A stretch of DNA of 64,000 nt from Clostridia bacterium (lineage in GTDB: Bacteria > Bacillota > Clostridia > TANB77 > CAG-508). The notes beneath the pieces were generated by a model. The model worked only from the letters and a program-made list of their open reading frames with translations, was not told the DNA's origin and made no database searches. Location: NCBI GenBank assembly GCA_017528085.1, contig JAFXPH010000002.1, positions 343,898-407,897 of the forward strand. The letters are read 5' to 3'. The translations under genes and the position numbers were made by a program. The first letter of the stretch is position 1; every line of letters begins with the position of its first letter. Below, in pieces: positions 8,968 to 28,524 of this stretch.

Positions 8968-9744
8968 TTAACTTTTTAATAATAAATTACTTATGTTTCT
9001 GCATATACCGAAAAATACAGTAACAACGATTCCCTTTGGTAAAAATATGCATAGAATTGCAGCTAATGTTAAAAATGGTCCAAATGCAATGTACTCATCT
9101 GTGTTTTTCTTTATTGATCTATAGATCAAAACAACTATTGAATAAATTGATGCAAGCAAGAATGCTAAAAGTGTAATGTTCAAAATATTTTGAACACCTA
9201 CTAATAGACCTAATGCACCCATAAGTTTTACATCGCCAAGTCCCATTGCTTCTTTTCCTGCAAGTAAACCTCCAAGTAGTGTAAGACCAACAAATATGCC
9301 TCCACCTACAAGCATTCCAAGTAGCATGTCTTTTACAAAATTTATATTGCTAATACCAAATAAAAATGTAAATATTAAACCTGTCTCAAATAATGTAAGT
9401 GTTAATCTATTTGGTATAATTCTATGTTCAAAATCAATATAAAATGCTAATACTAACATTGGTGTAACTACTAAATATTTAATAAGTTCAAGATTTTTAG
9501 CAGCTGTATCTTGAATACCAAATCTATACAAAATTAATACGTAGATAACAGCAACTGATATCATGTAAATATAGTTTTTTCTTAATCCTTTTTTATTTTC
9601 ATCAACAAACTCTTTTGAAAATATTGGTTTCTTTGCTATTAATCTTTCACTACACCATGCACAAAACTTACCTACAAGTAGTCCTAAAAATAACATTGCA
9701 AGGTAACTTATAATGTGCACATTATTTAAAAACATTAAGTTCAT
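8968..9744 (-). CDS. A24-family type IV prepilin peptidase
   Basis: Polytopic membrane protein. Motifs include GLGDVKLMGALG, conserved Asp residues and an N-terminal Cys pair. Confidence 0.75.
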   Translation of the reverse strand: MNLMFLNNVHIISYLAMLFLGLLVGKFCAWCSERLIAKKPIFSKEFVDENKKGLRKNYIYMISVAVIYVLILYRFGIQDTAAKNLELIKYLVVTPMLVLAFYIDFEHRIIPNRLTLTLFETGLIFTFLFGISNINFVKDMLLGMLVGGGIFVGLTLLGGLLAGKEAMGLGDVKLMGALGLLVGVQNILNITLLAFLLASIYSIVVLIYRSIKKNTDEYIAFGPFLTLAAILCIFLPKGIVVTVFFGICRNISNLLLKS

Positions 9745-23609: not shown

Positions 23610-24356
23610 CTACATTTCAAGTTCGTACATTATAATAGATGCAACTGAAAGGGCAACTGTTTCTGTTCTTAGAATTCTGTTTCCAAGTGTTACTACTTTA
23701 GCTCCGCTTTGCTTTAATGCTTCAACTTCGCTTTCTGCTAATCCTCCTTCAGGTCCAATTAGTACTGCAACCTTATATGTTTGTTTTTTAGTTTTGATTG
23801 TGACTAATTCATTTTTTATAGTGTTTTCTTTTTCATTTTCAAAACATACTATAAATAAATCATAATCACTTATAACATTTTGAACATCCTTTATATCATA
23901 TACATGTGATACTTCTGGAACAATATCTCTACCTGATTGTTTAGATGCAACTTCTGAGATTTTATTCCATCTGTCAATTTTTTTTAATTCATCTTTTTGA
24001 TCTAATTTTACTATACATCTTTCCATCTTAACTGGTATAAACTTATTTACACCAAGTTCTGTTCCTTTTTGAATAACAAGTTCCATCTTGTCTGCTTTAG
24101 GAAGTCCTTGATATATATCTAAAGTCACATTAGATTCACTTGTTGCTTCTGCTTCTTCTATAATCTTACAATTAACTTCTTCAGAAGAAACCTCTGTAAT
24201 CTCAGATATATAGTTTTTCTTTAGATCTTTATCACATACTAAGATTTTTGTTCCAACTTCTAATCTTAGTACATTTTTAATATGATTTACATCTGTACCT
24301 TTGATACAAATGTTGTCACCTTCTATTTGATTATTTAAAACAAAAAATTTTCTCAA
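23610..24356 (-). CDS. rsmE: 16S rRNA (uracil1498-N3)-methyltransferase
   Basis: PUA-like N-terminus and a SPOUT C-terminus (LIGPEGG). Confidence 0.85.
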   Translation of the reverse strand: MRKFFVLNNQIEGDNICIKGTDVNHIKNVLRLEVGTKILVCDKDLKKNYISEITEVSSEEVNCKIIEEAEATSESNVTLDIYQGLPKADKMELVIQKGTELGVNKFIPVKMERCIVKLDQKDELKKIDRWNKISEVASKQSGRDIVPEVSHVYDIKDVQNVISDYDLFIVCFENEKENTIKNELVTIKTKKQTYKVAVLIGPEGGLAESEVEALKQSGAKVVTLGNRILRTETVALSVASIIMYELEM

Positions 24357-24454: not shown

Positions 24455-24877
24455 TTAGCCATGTAATTCATCATCATCTAATTCGTCGTCAGTTGATAAT
24501 ATTTCTCTAGTTGATACTCTCTTTTCATCTCTACATTTTTCAACTGTTTCAGAGATTAAGTTTTTAACTTTCTCAGAATTTTTAACATCTTTAATATCAA
24601 ATTCTGGTGTAGTTTTATCCCCAGAACAAATGTGGATAGTTCCAACCTTAAAAATTCTTTGAAGAAGTGATCTATAAAGTGTAACGTCTGTTATTCTATA
24701 TAGTTTTATTTCTTCTTCTTTAATAGCTAAAAACCCTGTTTTTACTTCAATCTTATCTGGTTTTAATCTATATGTTGTAAATGAAAGTGGAAGCCCAAAT
24801 ATTGGTCTTTTTTTATCTTTCCACAAATATTCAATTTCCACAGAATCTTTTGTCTCTACTTTTTCTTCATTTTCCAT
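24455..24877 (-). CDS. bacterial PH-domain (YdbS/YdbT-like) protein
   Basis: About 120-aa bPH-like core with an acidic tail. Confidence 0.55.
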   Translation of the reverse strand: MENEEKVETKDSVEIEYLWKDKKRPIFGLPLSFTTYRLKPDKIEVKTGFLAIKEEEIKLYRITDVTLYRSLLQRIFKVGTIHICSGDKTTPEFDIKDVKNSEKVKNLISETVEKCRDEKRVSTREILSTDDELDDDELHG

Positions 24878-24941
24878 TTTAGGTTCTCTCCTAACATATT
24901 TTTACGTAAATATTATATCTTTTTTCTATGTTAATATCAAC

Positions 24942-24980
24942 AAAAAAGAAGAAGGTTCACACAAATTTGTGTGAGCCTTC
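24942..24980 (-). terminator. rho-independent terminator for the ABC exporter gene
   Basis: A 15-bp stem (GAAGGTTCACACAAA/TTTGTGTGAGCCTTC) followed by a T-run on the minus strand. Confidence 0.55.
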
Positions 24981-25012
24981 CTCTGTTTCCATTGAATGGT
25001 TTTGATTGTTTC

Positions 25013-26785
25013 TTACTTAGCAACGATGAAAGATTTATTAAGTTCCGTACGGAAGCAAATCTCCCTGTTGCAGAATGGCTTGCACTGGTTTACCTGATGA
25101 GTCGCGAGAATTACAATCCTCGGGTCCCTCATAATGTAACCAATCACAAACTCAGCACACTTCACAGTGGTTTCATCATCCAAACGGTTGAAAGGCTCAT
25201 CGAGAGCTACCATCTGGATTGAATCATCCAACTGATAAAGAAGCTTCGCCAAGGCTAACCTTTGCATCTGTCCAGAAGAGAACTCACGTACTCTCTTAGC
25301 TCTGATGAAAGATATAACCTTCTCTTCGTCGCTCGCGTTCTCTATTTCGAACTCAGTACCCTTAATCATCGTCAAGATTTCATCATAGAGACAAAGCCCT
25401 TTTAAAATCTCGAGAATCTTAAAGATATCGATGCTATCCCCATCATTTAGACTAATTTCATTGATGACAAAATTGTTTGCCATAGCTCTATCAGTCTGGT
25501 ATGTGAGAGAATTTAAATACCCTGAGTCTCCATTGGAAAACTGAATAGGACTATTTTCTGGGAAAAGCCCCCCAGTAAGTGTGGTTAGAAGTGTCGACTT
25601 ACCGCATCCTGTTTGGCCATGCACTAAGTACACGTCGCCTCTTTTTAATGTAATCATTTCAGTATTCTCAAGCACGAATCTCCATCTAGGATCGAGAGAT
25701 GCTTTGAACGCTTTAACGACCACACTATCAATTTTTTCGGATACGACTTTCTTCCTCTGCTCTTCTTGATAAACGGCATTGTATTCCTTAAACTCAGGAT
25801 ACAAAGTATCTATATCAACAACAATGTTCATAAGATCTTCGTAGTGACCTGTGATAGAAGAAATTCTGCCAAGGATAGAAGAGTAAATTGAAGATAATGC
25901 TACGATGTCGATAAATGCCATCATGTTCAACTCACCACCGAGGATAAGTTTAACAAATATGATAGACATCATGATCATCGTTGCAACTACACTTCGTTTG
26001 ATGAATACCTTGTTGATCTTGAAATGTTCATCTTTTTCCACGTTAATTCTGTCTTCTAGAACACTCCTGAGTTTCTCAGCATGGTAGTCAAGGTCTTTTC
26101 TAGACATAAAGCCTAAGGTTTTAAGATCAGTGTAAAGAACTTCCACTTTGGATTCATTCTCTTTTCTGACTTTTCTAAACTTTTTCCAAACCCTGATTTT
26201 CCTTTTGCTAAAGACAAAGTAGAGTGCTACTGCGATTAACAAAATAATGGTGGTGATGATGGTTTCTTCTTTCGAAGCTGTCTTGCTCTGAAGCACCGTG
26301 GATAGAACTATACTGAAAACCAAACTAAGAATCTGCACAATAAATGTGGGAATCCTGAGAATGAATCTCCAGCAGTCCGAAAGATAGTCTTTGGACTTTT
26401 GAATAAGCTCTGGTGTTTCAACAACTACTAACCCATTGCTAGTCTTCTTGTGAACTTTGCCTTTGACGGTACCTGTAAGGTCCAAAATCACTTCTGTCGA
26501 TGCCGCAGTCTGTACTCTAGTGTACGTGTCACCGATGAGTTCCATGAACGTAGTGTACGTTGTCATTAATGTTCTCTCGCTGAAGTACAACAAAAGTAAA
26601 ATAACTGTAATGGCAATCTTACCATCATTTAAGGTAAGTTCAGCGCCTTTGAGTGCGAATGCCAACAAATCAGGAATAATTATTCCCAAAATGCTGATCA
26701 TCACAAGTCTGTTTGCAAATTTTCTAACTTCGTCTGGCCTTTTGACCAAATCAAACGAAAGCTGTTCCATCACTTTTCTAAGCAT
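25013..26785 (-). CDS. fused ABC transporter permease/ATP-binding protein (exporter type)
   Basis: N-terminal TM domain. Walker A is GQTGCGKST, the signature is FSSGQMQRLALAK and Walker B is MVALDEPFNRLDDE. Confidence 0.85.
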   Translation of the reverse strand: MLRKVMEQLSFDLVKRPDEVRKFANRLVMISILGIIIPDLLAFALKGAELTLNDGKIAITVILLLLYFSERTLMTTYTTFMELIGDTYTRVQTAASTEVILDLTGTVKGKVHKKTSNGLVVVETPELIQKSKDYLSDCWRFILRIPTFIVQILSLVFSIVLSTVLQSKTASKEETIITTIILLIAVALYFVFSKRKIRVWKKFRKVRKENESKVEVLYTDLKTLGFMSRKDLDYHAEKLRSVLEDRINVEKDEHFKINKVFIKRSVVATMIMMSIIFVKLILGGELNMMAFIDIVALSSIYSSILGRISSITGHYEDLMNIVVDIDTLYPEFKEYNAVYQEEQRKKVVSEKIDSVVVKAFKASLDPRWRFVLENTEMITLKRGDVYLVHGQTGCGKSTLLTTLTGGLFPENSPIQFSNGDSGYLNSLTYQTDRAMANNFVINEISLNDGDSIDIFKILEILKGLCLYDEILTMIKGTEFEIENASDEEKVISFIRAKRVREFSSGQMQRLALAKLLYQLDDSIQMVALDEPFNRLDDETTVKCAEFVIGYIMRDPRIVILATHQVNQCKPFCNREICFRTELNKSFIVAK

Positions 26786-26968
26786 AATATTCCTCCTTTA
26801 GTATAAATATTGCCGTGATGATTGTGTTACAGTTTGAAGAAACGATACCTCCTTTCAAAAAATTGGCTTAAAAGCGAGTGCTTTTAAATTTGAGACATAA
26901 AACCTATATAGTTAACATAATTATACCACAATATAGCTTGAAATTCAATAAAATCAGTATTTTGGAGC

Positions 26969-26999
26969 ATAAAAAAAAGAAGCTCTATATGAACTTCTT
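26969..26999 (-). terminator. weak hairpin plus T-run downstream of tRNA-Asn
   Basis: AAGAAG..CTTCTT stem followed by T8 on the minus strand. Confidence 0.35.
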
Positions 27000-27001
27000 T
27001 T

Positions 27002-27077
27002 TGGCTCCTCGTGTTGGGCTCGAACCAACGACCTATCGGTTAACAGCCGAGCGCTCTACCAGCTGAGCTAACGAGGA
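27002..27077 (-). tRNA. tRNA-Asn (anticodon GTT)
   Basis: Reverse complement reads TCCTCGTTAGCTCAGCTGGTAGAGC...CTGTTAA...GGTTCGAGCCCAACACGAGGAGCCA. The acceptor, D-arm and T-arm pair properly, and the anticodon loop CTGTTAA gives GTT. Confidence 0.85.
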
Positions 27078-27140
27078 ATATTCTTTTTGCAAATTGATTA
27101 TATACTATAATTATATTTAATTGCAAGTATTTTTTTAAGT

Positions 27141-27172
27141 TAAATAAAAAAAGTAGCTTAAAAGCTACTTTT
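27141..27172 (-). terminator. rho-independent terminator overlapping the folA stop codon
   Basis: AGTAGCTT..AAGCTACT stem with a T-run following on the minus strand. Confidence 0.5.
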
Positions 27173-27653
27173 CTTTTCTTTCATAAATAACATAGTCATA
27201 TCTAAAATCATTTTCATCTTGTGGTGCATGTTCTCTACTTACTTCTTTCCATTCATCTTTTGATATTTCTGGGAAGTAAGAATCTCCATCAAAGTCTTTA
27301 TCTATTTCTGTTATATATAATCTATCAGCCTTTGGCATTAGAAGCTTATATATCATTGCTCCACCTATTACAAAGTTTTCTTCATCTTTGTTTATATACT
27401 CATCTAGCTTTTCGATATCGTCAACTATTACAACATTTTCATCATCACAATCAATATCTGTTAAGCTTAATACAACATGTTTTCTATTTGGAAGTACTCT
27501 TCCAAGTGATAAAAATGTATTTCTTCCCATTATTACTGTATGACCTGTTGTTATTTTTTTAAATCTTTTTAAGTCAGCAGGTATATTCCATATTAACTTG
27601 TTATCTTTTCCTATTACATAATTTTTTGCAACTGCAACTATTATACTTAGCAT
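27165..27653 (-). CDS. folA: dihydrofolate reductase
   Basis: MLSIIVAVAKNYVIGKDNKLIW..GHTVIMGRNTF core. Start set at the ATG after the RBS GGGAGGG; the ORF track start at 27677 overlaps thyA. Confidence 0.9.
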   Translation of the reverse strand: MLSIIVAVAKNYVIGKDNKLIWNIPADLKRFKKITTGHTVIMGRNTFLSLGRVLPNRKHVVLSLTDIDCDDENVVIVDDIEKLDEYINKDEENFVIGGAMIYKLLMPKADRLYITEIDKDFDGDSYFPEISKDEWKEVSREHAPQDENDFRYDYVIYERKEK

Positions 27654-27666
27654 TGGCATCCCTCCC

Positions 27667-28524
27667 TTAGTTAGCAACAGGTATTTTACCTAATTTAATA
27701 TCTTTATTATAATCATATCCTTCAACAACAAAATCTTCTACTTTGAAATCATAGAAATTCTTAGTAGGATTATTAATTACTAGTTTTGGATGACAATCAA
27801 CAGGTTCTGCTTCTATTAATTGTTTTACTAGTGGTATATGTCTATCGTATATATGACAATCGCCGATATTATGTGTTAATGTTCCTGGTTTTAATCCACA
27901 TACTTGTGCAAACATATAGCAAAGTGCAGCATATTGCATTGTATTCCATCCATTTGCTGCAAGCATATCTTGAGATCTTTGATTTAATATTAAATGAAGT
28001 TTTCCTTCTTTTACAAGCCATTGTGTACCAAATGCACATGGTTCAAGATTCATATCTTTAAGTTCATCATGAGCAAATAAATTAGTCATTATTCTACGAC
28101 TTGCTGGATCATTTTGAAGTAGATATAAAACAAAATCTACTTGGTCCATACTCTTAATTCCCTCTTTTGTTTTGAAATCATATTTTCTAGAGAATTGGTA
28201 TCCATATGCTTTACCTATAGTTCCATCTTCCCCTGCCCATTGATCCCAAATGTGAGAATTTAAATCAGCTACTTTATTTGATTTCTTTTGCCATATCCAT
28301 AGTAGTTCATCAATTGATCTATAAACTGTCTTAGATTGGTTTCTTAAAGTAATCATAGGGAATTCTTTTTCTAAGTCGTATTTATTACTTACACCAACAA
28401 TAGAATAATAATTGGCTTCTGAGCCATCTTCCCATCTTGTTCTTACTCCAGTCCCTTCTGAAGAATATCCATGATCAATAATCTCTTTACATGTTTCAAT
28501 AAAATTCTTATCTGCTTCTGTCAT
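27667..28524 (-). CDS. thyA: thymidylate synthase
   Basis: ThyA active-site region (..LEPCAFGTQW.., nucleophile Cys). Resembles the B. subtilis ThyA-type. Confidence 0.95.
   Translation of the reverse strand: MTEADKNFIETCKEIIDHGYSSEGTGVRTRWEDGSEANYYSIVGVSNKYDLEKEFPMITLRNQSKTVYRSIDELLWIWQKKSNKVADLNSHIWDQWAGEDGTIGKAYGYQFSRKYDFKTKEGIKSMDQVDFVLYLLQNDPASRRIMTNLFAHDELKDMNLEPCAFGTQWLVKEGKLHLILNQRSQDMLAANGWNTMQYAALCYMFAQVCGLKPGTLTHNIGDCHIYDRHIPLVKQLIEAEPVDCHPKLVINNPTKNFYDFKVEDFVVEGYDYNKDIKLGKIPVAN

Follow-up and report, generated by a model that had tools for sequence, protein, structure and literature searches.

McjD (the microcin J25 self-immunity exporter), Sav1866, MsbA, NdvA and Atm1 are ATP-binding cassette (ABC) half-transporters in which one polypeptide carries an N-terminal six-helix transmembrane domain (TMD) and a C-terminal nucleotide-binding domain (NBD). 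Here we describe a protein of the same layout that is encoded in a 64,000-nucleotide stretch of DNA from Clostridia bacterium (assembly GCA_017528085.1, contig JAFXPH010000002.1, forward-strand positions 343,898 to 407,897). This whole stretch is called the window, and positions are counted from its first nucleotide. Like the described half-transporters, the protein has canonical catalytic motifs throughout, but it is only 12-16% identical to them, its TMD is missed by the Pfam ABC_membrane profile and its model has a beta-hairpin in the place of the coupling helix. In contrast to McjD, its gene (the ABC gene) has no microcin or other biosynthetic genes as neighbours. Together with its own control signals the gene forms an accessory cassette that was probably inserted by recombination, is probably held at a high third-position GC content (GC3) and may serve in efflux or immunity.

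BmrCD, a multidrug ABC exporter of Bacillus subtilis, is induced by ribosome-mediated attenuation via the leader peptide BmrB (PMC4191407). The cassette likewise has a long leader before its open reading frame (ORF), with a mini-ORF in several lineages. However, it is a single gene whose product is predicted to form a homodimer, whereas BmrCD is a heterodimer; in addition, the mini-ORF peptide is not conserved and the leader folds like shuffled sequence. By analogy, BmrCD-type attenuation through the leader may be taken as only a lead. Orphan resistance and immunity genes that have their own promoter and terminator and occur in many unrelated contexts with no conserved partner also resemble the cassette, but no mobile-element, plasmid or phage copy of the latter was found. 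Genomic islands linked to tRNA genes share with it the tRNA adjacency, the atypical codon usage and the patchy distribution, whereas the cassette has no integrase and no tRNA-derived repeat, comprises only one gene and has a composition that is a family trait. When GC or codon usage shifts sharply beside a tRNA gene, this is routinely taken to mark a recent island. In the present family the shift is a stable property in every host, and composition alone would mislead.

A self-contained cassette is conserved across ten lineages

The segment at ~24943..26948 is a self-contained cassette of promoter, leader, single ORF and terminator (Table 1), and this architecture is conserved across ten lineages. 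An earlier note on this DNA had described a single fused TMD-NBD ABC exporter gene at the 3' side of tRNA-Asn with a strong terminator of its own, and this description holds. The flagged span contains a single long ORF, co-oriented with tRNA-Asn, whose ATG lies 216 nucleotides (nt) downstream of the tRNA 3' end. The fusion is borne out by Pfam, by an AlphaFold2 (AF2) model and by the motifs. The terminator has a 13-bp stem that contains G+C (24951..24980), followed by a T-run, and the cassette has its own promoter as well.

Searches of 5.8 billion clustered proteins found 29 clusters related to the ABC protein over most of its length. Their identity drops from 96% straight to 55% and then declines to 28%, after which only generic ABC matches remain. 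A profile search of 1.84 billion representatives returned 76 clusters at E <=1e-30, nearly all of them full-length (560-630 aa). These clusters, made at 50% identity, all come from metagenomes and metagenome-assembled genomes, and the few names attached are automatic. Members for which flanking DNA was compared fall into ten lineages with ten neighbourhoods. In lineage A (the window, L062, L063 and L081) tRNA-Asn lies upstream and a bacterial PH domain (bPH) gene downstream; in lineage B (L010, L011, L064 and L065) the neighbours are a NUDIX gene upstream and an SDF gene downstream; and in lineage C (L012) they are a peptidase M3 gene upstream and a DUF4364 gene downstream. Lineages D (L069, L072 and L073), E (L070 and L074), F (L067, L068 and L075), G (L071) and H (L082 and L083) each have a context of their own. 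Lineage I (L084) has the gene for IleRS upstream, and lineage J (L085 and L086) has tRNA-Asn upstream and an AraC/GyrI-like regulator gene downstream. The ABC gene always stands alone, with no conserved partner. The patchy distribution and the differing contexts indicate that the gene is accessory and has moved in its history. An apparent pseudogene in L009 proved to be the artefact of a scaffold join across an N-gap, and an apparent DnaX fusion (P0014, L080) is a chimeric 1.6-kb contig in which a DnaX fragment is joined to the ABC gene.

A 14-mer, TATAATTATGTTAA, consisting of the -10 hexamer and the next 8 nt, is invariant in lineages A-G, where it lies 99-189 nt upstream of the ATG. Lineages I and J have it with 1 mismatch, and lineage H keeps TGnTATAAT followed by an only loosely similar stretch. 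Among members with upstream DNA in the set the 14-mer occurs once per ABC locus; it occurs in 0 of 61 other loci and once in the window, and across 79 loci it was seen nowhere but upstream of family members. Also kept across lineages are a -35 element, with a 17-nt spacing, and the TG that extends the -10.

The leaders are 95-190 nt long. A second box resembling a Shine-Dalgarno (SD) sequence, (A/T)TGAAAGGAGG, is found in the leaders of five lineages (A, C, D, E and G). Another box, GCACATTGA, lies 35-50 nt before the start codon in lineages B, F, I and J (e.g. L010 about 9238..9246) and is not in the window's leader. Mini-ORFs (MKGGPF*, MKGGLF*, MKGDYLKIF*) occur in lineages C and D, and that of lineage D is followed by a weak hairpin and a T-run. 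The mini-ORF of the window starts with TTG and is frameshifted relative to the sister population described below. A leader peptide was not supported, since it is not conserved as protein. A riboswitch or other structured leader was rejected, because the leader has no match in Rfam and its fold z-scores are at the level of shuffled sequences.

Every family member is followed by a hairpin set between an A-tract and a T-tract. An alignment of 13 of these terminators shows compensatory changes at 11 of the 15 stem pairs. The loop is ATAATT in nine of the 13 (usually CATAATTG) and TTAATT in one more. Read on the opposite strand the loop gives AATTATG, a heptamer of the invariant promoter core, and an inverted AATTATG brackets the cassette in their lineages; the window has AAATTT instead (24960..24971). 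A flanking inverted 8-mer, TATGTTAA / TTAACATA, was considered as a recombination site and rejected, as neither the sister population nor the other lineages conserve it. Taken together, the cassettes define an uncharacterised ABC-exporter subfamily with its own near-invariant promoter and covarying terminator within a well-known transporter class.

The high GC3 of the ABC gene is shared by every lineage

The window has ~30% GC overall, and most of its 1-kb windows lie at 0.26-0.33. The two that cover the cassette, 25001-26000 and 26001-27000, reach 0.398 and 0.362, and in 200-nt windows GC steps sharply at ~24950 and ~26900. The earlier note had reported the GC shift and proposed a codon check, which places the ABC gene outside the host distribution: its GC3 is 0.440 compared to a mean of 0.150 (standard deviation 0.060) in the 44 other ORFs of at least 150 aa, giving z = +4.8, and that of the flanking ORFs is 0.078-0.194. 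In contrast, at an overall GC of 0.393, its GC1 (0.426) and GC2 (0.313) are host-like, the host means being 0.439 and 0.301. All codon families are shifted; the within-family fractions of CTC, ACC, CAG and AGG are 0.18, 0.20, 0.75 and 0.32 in the ABC gene compared to 0.00, 0.00, 0.04 and 0.05 in the host. The GC excess is purely synonymous and gene-wide. Since the gene of the S-layer (SLH) protein, 2269 aa and presumably among the most highly expressed here, has a GC3 of only 0.105, the codons of the ABC gene are anti-optimal and not of a high-expression type.

The same excess is found throughout the family, whose host genomes have 24-32% GC. GC3 is 1.4-3.3 times the median of the flanks in lineages A-G and ~2-2.5 times in H-J, with host-like GC1+2. 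The excess is even along the gene, and its profile is not common to the lineages (mean r 0.14). Site-specific clusters of rare codons were rejected, as no GC3 profile is shared and over-dispersion is merely marginal (P 0.03). Orthologues at the same locus show how the excess behaves over time. In lineages B (L010/L065 and L010/L064) and D (L072/L073) the synonymous G/C-versus-A/T state differs between partners at 0.38-0.41 of the sites, which is 79-94% of the possible maximum; both partners have a GC3 of 0.32-0.45, and their flanks 0.11-0.23. Under a two-state model, neutral relaxation to host composition would need an ancestral GC3 of 0.66-0.72 in these two lineages, a value that is hard to reconcile with the AT-type GC1+2. 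The available outgroups are saturated at synonymous sites. Because the GC3 excess is found in every lineage and is kept near synonymous saturation, it is a maintained family trait and not a sign of recent arrival. We infer that a gene-specific force holds GC3 high, and that the excess is not the fading signature of an import. Such a force could be selection on translation or on the mRNA, or a recombination-linked GC bias.

The main rival explanation for the maintenance of GC3 is that copies are refreshed from an unsampled pool or are subject to a GC bias linked to recombination. The cassette would then belong to a mobile pool of ~40-50% GC and be repeatedly re-imported into AT-rich Clostridia or exchanged between them, sometimes by allelic replacement at the same locus, so that GC3 is refreshed from the pool or raised by GC-biased conversion. 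The ten contexts in ten lineages, the promoter and terminator that travel with the ORF, and the uniformity of the excess along the gene, as expected under a compositional and not a site-specific force, are all consistent with it. Two sister-population assemblies (L062 and L081) break 107-110 nt upstream of the ATG, which may hint at junction heterogeneity. However, the mobile collections yielded no family member: in IMG/VR a full-length alignment found a generic NBD match alone among the matches listed and a TMD-only alignment found none, and tblastn of PLSDB and INPHARED was also negative. No host context matches the GC of the ABC gene, and its GC1 and GC2 are typical of AT-rich hosts. Near-identical copies in differing contexts were not seen; the sub-clades are each tied to one locus and their divergence tracks that of the flanks. 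On balance we regard such a pool as a minor possibility.

A selective explanation of the codon usage can be taken further. Selection might maintain both the rare-codon enrichment and the near-invariant core promoter, and the two would then act as a built-in governor of expression that moves wherever the gene moves; we think this idea unlikely as it stands. The very strong promoter and SD would drive the mRNA while rare codons would throttle translation; alternatively, its composition may protect the mRNA in AU-rich hosts. The family would in that case be a 'plug-in' module for efflux or immunity, autonomous and free of any recombinase, which has persisted in AT-rich Clostridia of the gut and rumen. 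Should selection lie behind the codon bias, the family offers a tractable case of gene-specific codon-usage maintenance.

The contigs L062 and L081, from two independent assemblies, start at about window 26891-26895, ~20 nt downstream of the conserved promoter core. Heterogeneity between strains, or a repeat at the upstream junction, may lie behind these breakpoints.

The cassette encodes a predicted type IV-fold ABC half-transporter

Pfam places ABC_tran at residues 378-533 of the 590-aa protein (E 3.9e-12, above the cut-off), whereas the PF00664 (ABC_membrane) profile has no match in it even at E up to 1. PF00664 is carried only by remote relatives of 22-25% identity (P0030, P0036 and P0063). 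With a TMD that escapes this profile, membership of the type IV class is assigned at the level of the fold, as a separate subfamily. The AF2 model, made from a 28-sequence family alignment, has a mean predicted local distance difference test (pLDDT) score of 80.8 and shows six long helices (residues 18-42, 57-107, 124-169, 172-223, 229-283 and 288-343) followed by the NBD. In the model the first intracellular loop forms a beta-hairpin (residues 112-121), with locally lower confidence. Foldseek matched the model to McjD, Atm1, HlyB, MsbA and PCAT1 with 13-16% identity and TM-scores of 0.6-0.69 (0.65-0.69 for the first four), and it superposes over its full length on McjD, NdvA, MsbA and Sav1866. 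No solved structure is close by sequence profile; PglK is the sole solved protein that a profile matches over both TMD and NBD (E 4.2e-12).

The catalytic motifs are all present, namely Walker A (GQTGCGKST), Q-loop (YQTD), signature (FSSGQ), Walker B with the catalytic Glu (ALDEP) and H-loop (ATHQ). Residues invariant in the 28 sequences include G390, K396, Q430, S503-G505-Q506, D529-E530 and H563. As modelled, the protein is a divergent type IV-fold ABC half-transporter (formerly 'type I exporter') with intact catalytic motifs, and their conservation suggests that it is catalytically competent. Matches to NCBIfam families (ABC-F, CydC/CydD and others) are all far under their cut-offs. A CydDC thiol/heme exporter is not supported: TIGR02857 scores 56.6 bits (cut-off 435) and TIGR02868 scores 53.7 bits (cut-off 329), and there is a single gene with no cydAB nearby. 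Pfam found no C39 peptidase domain of the kind that marks PCAT-type bacteriocin exporters, and no bacteriocin or accessory genes lie beside the ABC gene here or in the other lineages.

Our best guess for the function is drug or peptide efflux. The peptide, bacteriocin or drug efflux pump suggested in the earlier note is a plausible conjecture. Efflux or immunity is favoured because of the orphan accessory distribution, the fold neighbours McjD, ComA and BmrCD, and the regulator of lineage J. There a gene for an AraC-type helix-turn-helix (HTH) protein with a GyrI-like/Cass2 domain lies directly downstream and co-oriented (L085 2322..3125). Effector-binding regulators of the AraC-HTH plus GyrI-like type are often paired with multidrug pumps, and we take this one as a hint of efflux. 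That the substrate is a toxic small molecule or peptide, which would give the cassette a resistance or immunity role, is the weakest step of our account, and we propose it tentatively, at somewhat less than even chances. If the substrate is an antibiotic, ionophore or bacteriocin, gut Clostridia would have in this family a determinant of resistance or immunity that is widespread but has been overlooked.

An alternative role is in envelope biogenesis, with the protein acting as a flippase or exporter of a lipid-linked glycan, lipid or glucan, as do PglK, MsbA and NdvA, and not as a resistance or immunity pump. The profile match to PglK over the full length and the giant SLH S-layer protein gene 5 kb away would fit such a role. 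However, none of the lineages has a glycosyltransferase or envelope gene as a conserved neighbour, and genes with a core envelope function are not usually patchy and accessory in their distribution. We consider an envelope role rather improbable.

The ABC gene has co-diverged with its flanks in the tRNA-Asn/rsmE interval

A sister population shares 93.5% DNA identity with the window over 5.9 kb of the locus, and its ABC protein is 96% identical. The gene is present in every contig of its own population and in this relative. Between the two populations the ABC gene has a synonymous divergence (dS) of ~0.35 compared to 0.18-0.88 for the flanks. Since gene and flanks have diverged in step, the two populations descend from an ancestor that already had the gene. 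The rsmE gene was used to look further afield. In 48 related species (Candidatus Scatovivens and allies; RsmE 29-65% identical) no relative of the ABC gene or of the bPH gene lies in the upstream stretch covered, which reaches <=8 kb from rsmE. The closer of these species share the gene block that runs from rsmE to gmk. Their tRNA-Asn is often found 0.2-6 kb upstream of rsmE, and what lies between the two differs, which marks the interval as a variable region. Among the 5.8 billion proteins the orthologues of RsmE (window 23610..24356) fall from 94% to 68% identity, a lone 80% match being a truncated copy of the same protein. This gap places the host in a genus-level lineage of which only two metagenomic populations, closely related to each other, are known. 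The closest RsmE relative (68%) has neither an ABC gene nor a bPH gene, and the GTDB species representatives reached via RsmE are at best 65% identical and have a different layout. Homologues of the bPH protein at 80% and 72% identity lie in unrelated contexts.

The earlier note had taken the gene for a GC-shifted islet integrated next to tRNA-Asn and suggested a decayed island or an insertion mediated by recombination. In its full form this explanation holds that the islet was integrated site-specifically at the 3' end of tRNA-Asn, that the integrase and the attachment (att) sites were later lost, and that the GC shift marks a fairly recent import. The short distance and shared orientation of gene and tRNA, the codon usage far outside the host range, and the variable content of the interval among related species all speak for it. 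So does lineage J, which also abuts tRNA-Asn. Its contigs start inside the tRNA (L085 1..36, L086 1..26), ~245-280 nt upstream of the ABC gene, and over its first 36 nt this tRNA matches the 5' half of the window's tRNA-Asn at 94% identity. Given lineage A, we estimate at a few percent the probability that one of the nine other lineages would adjoin tRNA-Asn by chance, which is suggestive. However, the tRNA of lineage J is opposite in orientation to the ABC gene and turns its 5' end towards it, which does not fit att-type integration, and the other eight contexts have no adjacent tRNA.

The note's statement that no integrase, recombinase or direct repeat is visible was confirmed: Pfam shows no domain of an integrase or recombinase within +/-10 kb, the 25-nt 3' end of tRNA-Asn has no second copy in the window at <=3 mismatches, and no direct repeats beyond chance bracket the ABC gene. 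The family is also patchy, with ~29 close clusters among the 5.8 billion proteins and no relative in the stretch covered upstream of rsmE in the 48 species. The interpretation built on these points was only partly supported. Integration targeted to the tRNA is opposed by the missing att repeat and by the contexts of lineage J and the other eight. The GC shift loses its meaning as the sign of an imported islet because all ten lineages have the same GC3 excess and keep it at near-randomised synonymous sites. A recent arrival is not supported either, as gene and flanks have co-diverged from the only known close relative. We therefore judge a tRNA-targeted islet to be highly improbable.

A model for the origin and role of the cassette

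In the model that we favour, a strong sigma-A promoter would drive a monocistronic mRNA. The product, most likely a homodimer with two canonical ATP sites, would expel its substrate from the cytoplasm or the inner leaflet. The cassette may have been relocated several times among AT-rich gut and rumen Clostridia without a dedicated recombinase. Recombination without att sites, and not a tRNA-specific integrase, would have brought it into the variable interval from tRNA-Asn to rsmE. This entry would predate the split of the two known species-level populations, and inheritance would have been vertical since before that split.

Several points weigh against this model. An empty site was not found through the GTDB representatives reached via RsmE, the bPH homologues or the 5.8 billion proteins, and the insertion itself we infer from the patchiness and the differing contexts. 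The adjacency in lineage J may point to some link with the tRNA-Asn neighbourhood. The amelioration estimate comes from a crude two-state model, and the forces named for the high GC3 are candidates that could act here. No context has a partner, biosynthetic or bacteriocin gene beside the ABC gene, and the leader folds no more stably than its shuffles (window z = +0.17; range -0.9 to +0.2). That the product is instead an anti-phage defence ATPase or an ABC-F ribosome-protection protein can practically be discounted on architecture, since the best PADLOC match (mad3, E 5.7e-14) and the best NCBIfam E-value (an ABC-F family, 57.7 bits against a cut-off of 380) both cover only the generic NBD of a protein that has one NBD, a six-helix TMD and no partner genes.

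Organisation of the locus and neighbouring features

On the minus strand the order of elements is dfrA terminator, tRNA promoter, tRNA-Asn, hairpin, cassette promoter, leader, ORF, cassette terminator and bPH_2 promoter (Table 1). The hairpin behind tRNA-Asn would set the tRNA transcript apart from the ABC cassette. The bPH_2 gene, with its host-like GC and a promoter of its own, lies outside the cassette. The same arrangement was recovered in several independent assemblies, which shows that the locus is not an assembly chimera. Upstream of tRNA-Asn are thyA and dfrA, and downstream of the cassette follow the bPH gene, rsmE, yicC, remA, rpoZ, gmk and priA. Larger neighbours include the S-layer protein gene, carAB and an acyl-CoA synthetase gene; inspection of the large neighbouring genes revealed no biosynthetic cluster nearby.

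Table 1. Elements of the ABC cassette and its immediate neighbours in the window, in the order of the minus strand.
Feature	Position	Strand	Basis or detail
Promoter of tRNA-Asn	27097..27126	-	promoter scan
tRNA-Asn (anticodon GTT), upstream neighbour	27002..27077	-	ARAGORN; Rfam 65.2 bits
Terminator-like hairpin immediately 3' of tRNA-Asn	26974..27002	-	12-bp stem and T-run
Cassette promoter, sigma-A type (-35 TTGAAT, 17-nt spacer, extended -10 TGgTATAAT)	26920..26948	-	scan, 10/12 matches plus TG
Family-specific core TATAATTATGTTAAC (-10 hexamer and 9 nt)	26911..26925	-	alignment with promoters of other lineages
5' leader, ~128 nt	26786..26913	-	sequence; leader comparison
Small leader hairpin	about 26867..26887	-	
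Second SD-like leader box TTGAAAGGAGG	26848..26858	-	
True SD AAAGGAGG, strong	26792..26799	-	
ABC half-transporter ORF, 590 aa (predicted)	25013..26785	-	translation; Pfam; AF2 model
TMD of the ORF, residues ~1-345	about 25751..26785	-	
NBD of the ORF, residues ~350-590	25016..25735	-	
Cassette intrinsic terminator, hairpin GAAGGCTCACACAAATTTGTGTGAACCTTC then T-run	24943..24988	-	terminator scan and inverted-repeat search
Promoter of the bPH_2 gene	24912..24940	-	promoter scan
bPH_2 (bacterial PH domain) gene, downstream neighbour	24455..24877	-	Pfam PF03703; GC3 0.143

The genes thyA and dfrA adjoin tRNA-Asn at window 27165..28524. In two relatives whose ORFs were read, thyX stands in place of thyA-dfrA: a ThyX-like gene with an RHRMHS motif lies beside their tRNA-Asn (L016 4980..6419, L019 5437..6858). 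A thyA/folA-for-thyX displacement seems to have taken place in this neighbourhood.

A second GC-rich patch (window 58200..60700) starts directly after a tRNA-Gly gene (58123..58196, plus strand), and no integrase was seen there. The patch holds two small ORFs of GC ~0.36 (58352..58573 and 58617..58955), a host-like NUDIX-like ORF on the minus strand (59003..59422) and, on the plus strand, the ORF of a predicted lipoprotein of 326 aa (59696..60676). Like the two small ORFs, the lipoprotein ORF has no Pfam match; its GC is 0.475 and its GC3 is 0.51.

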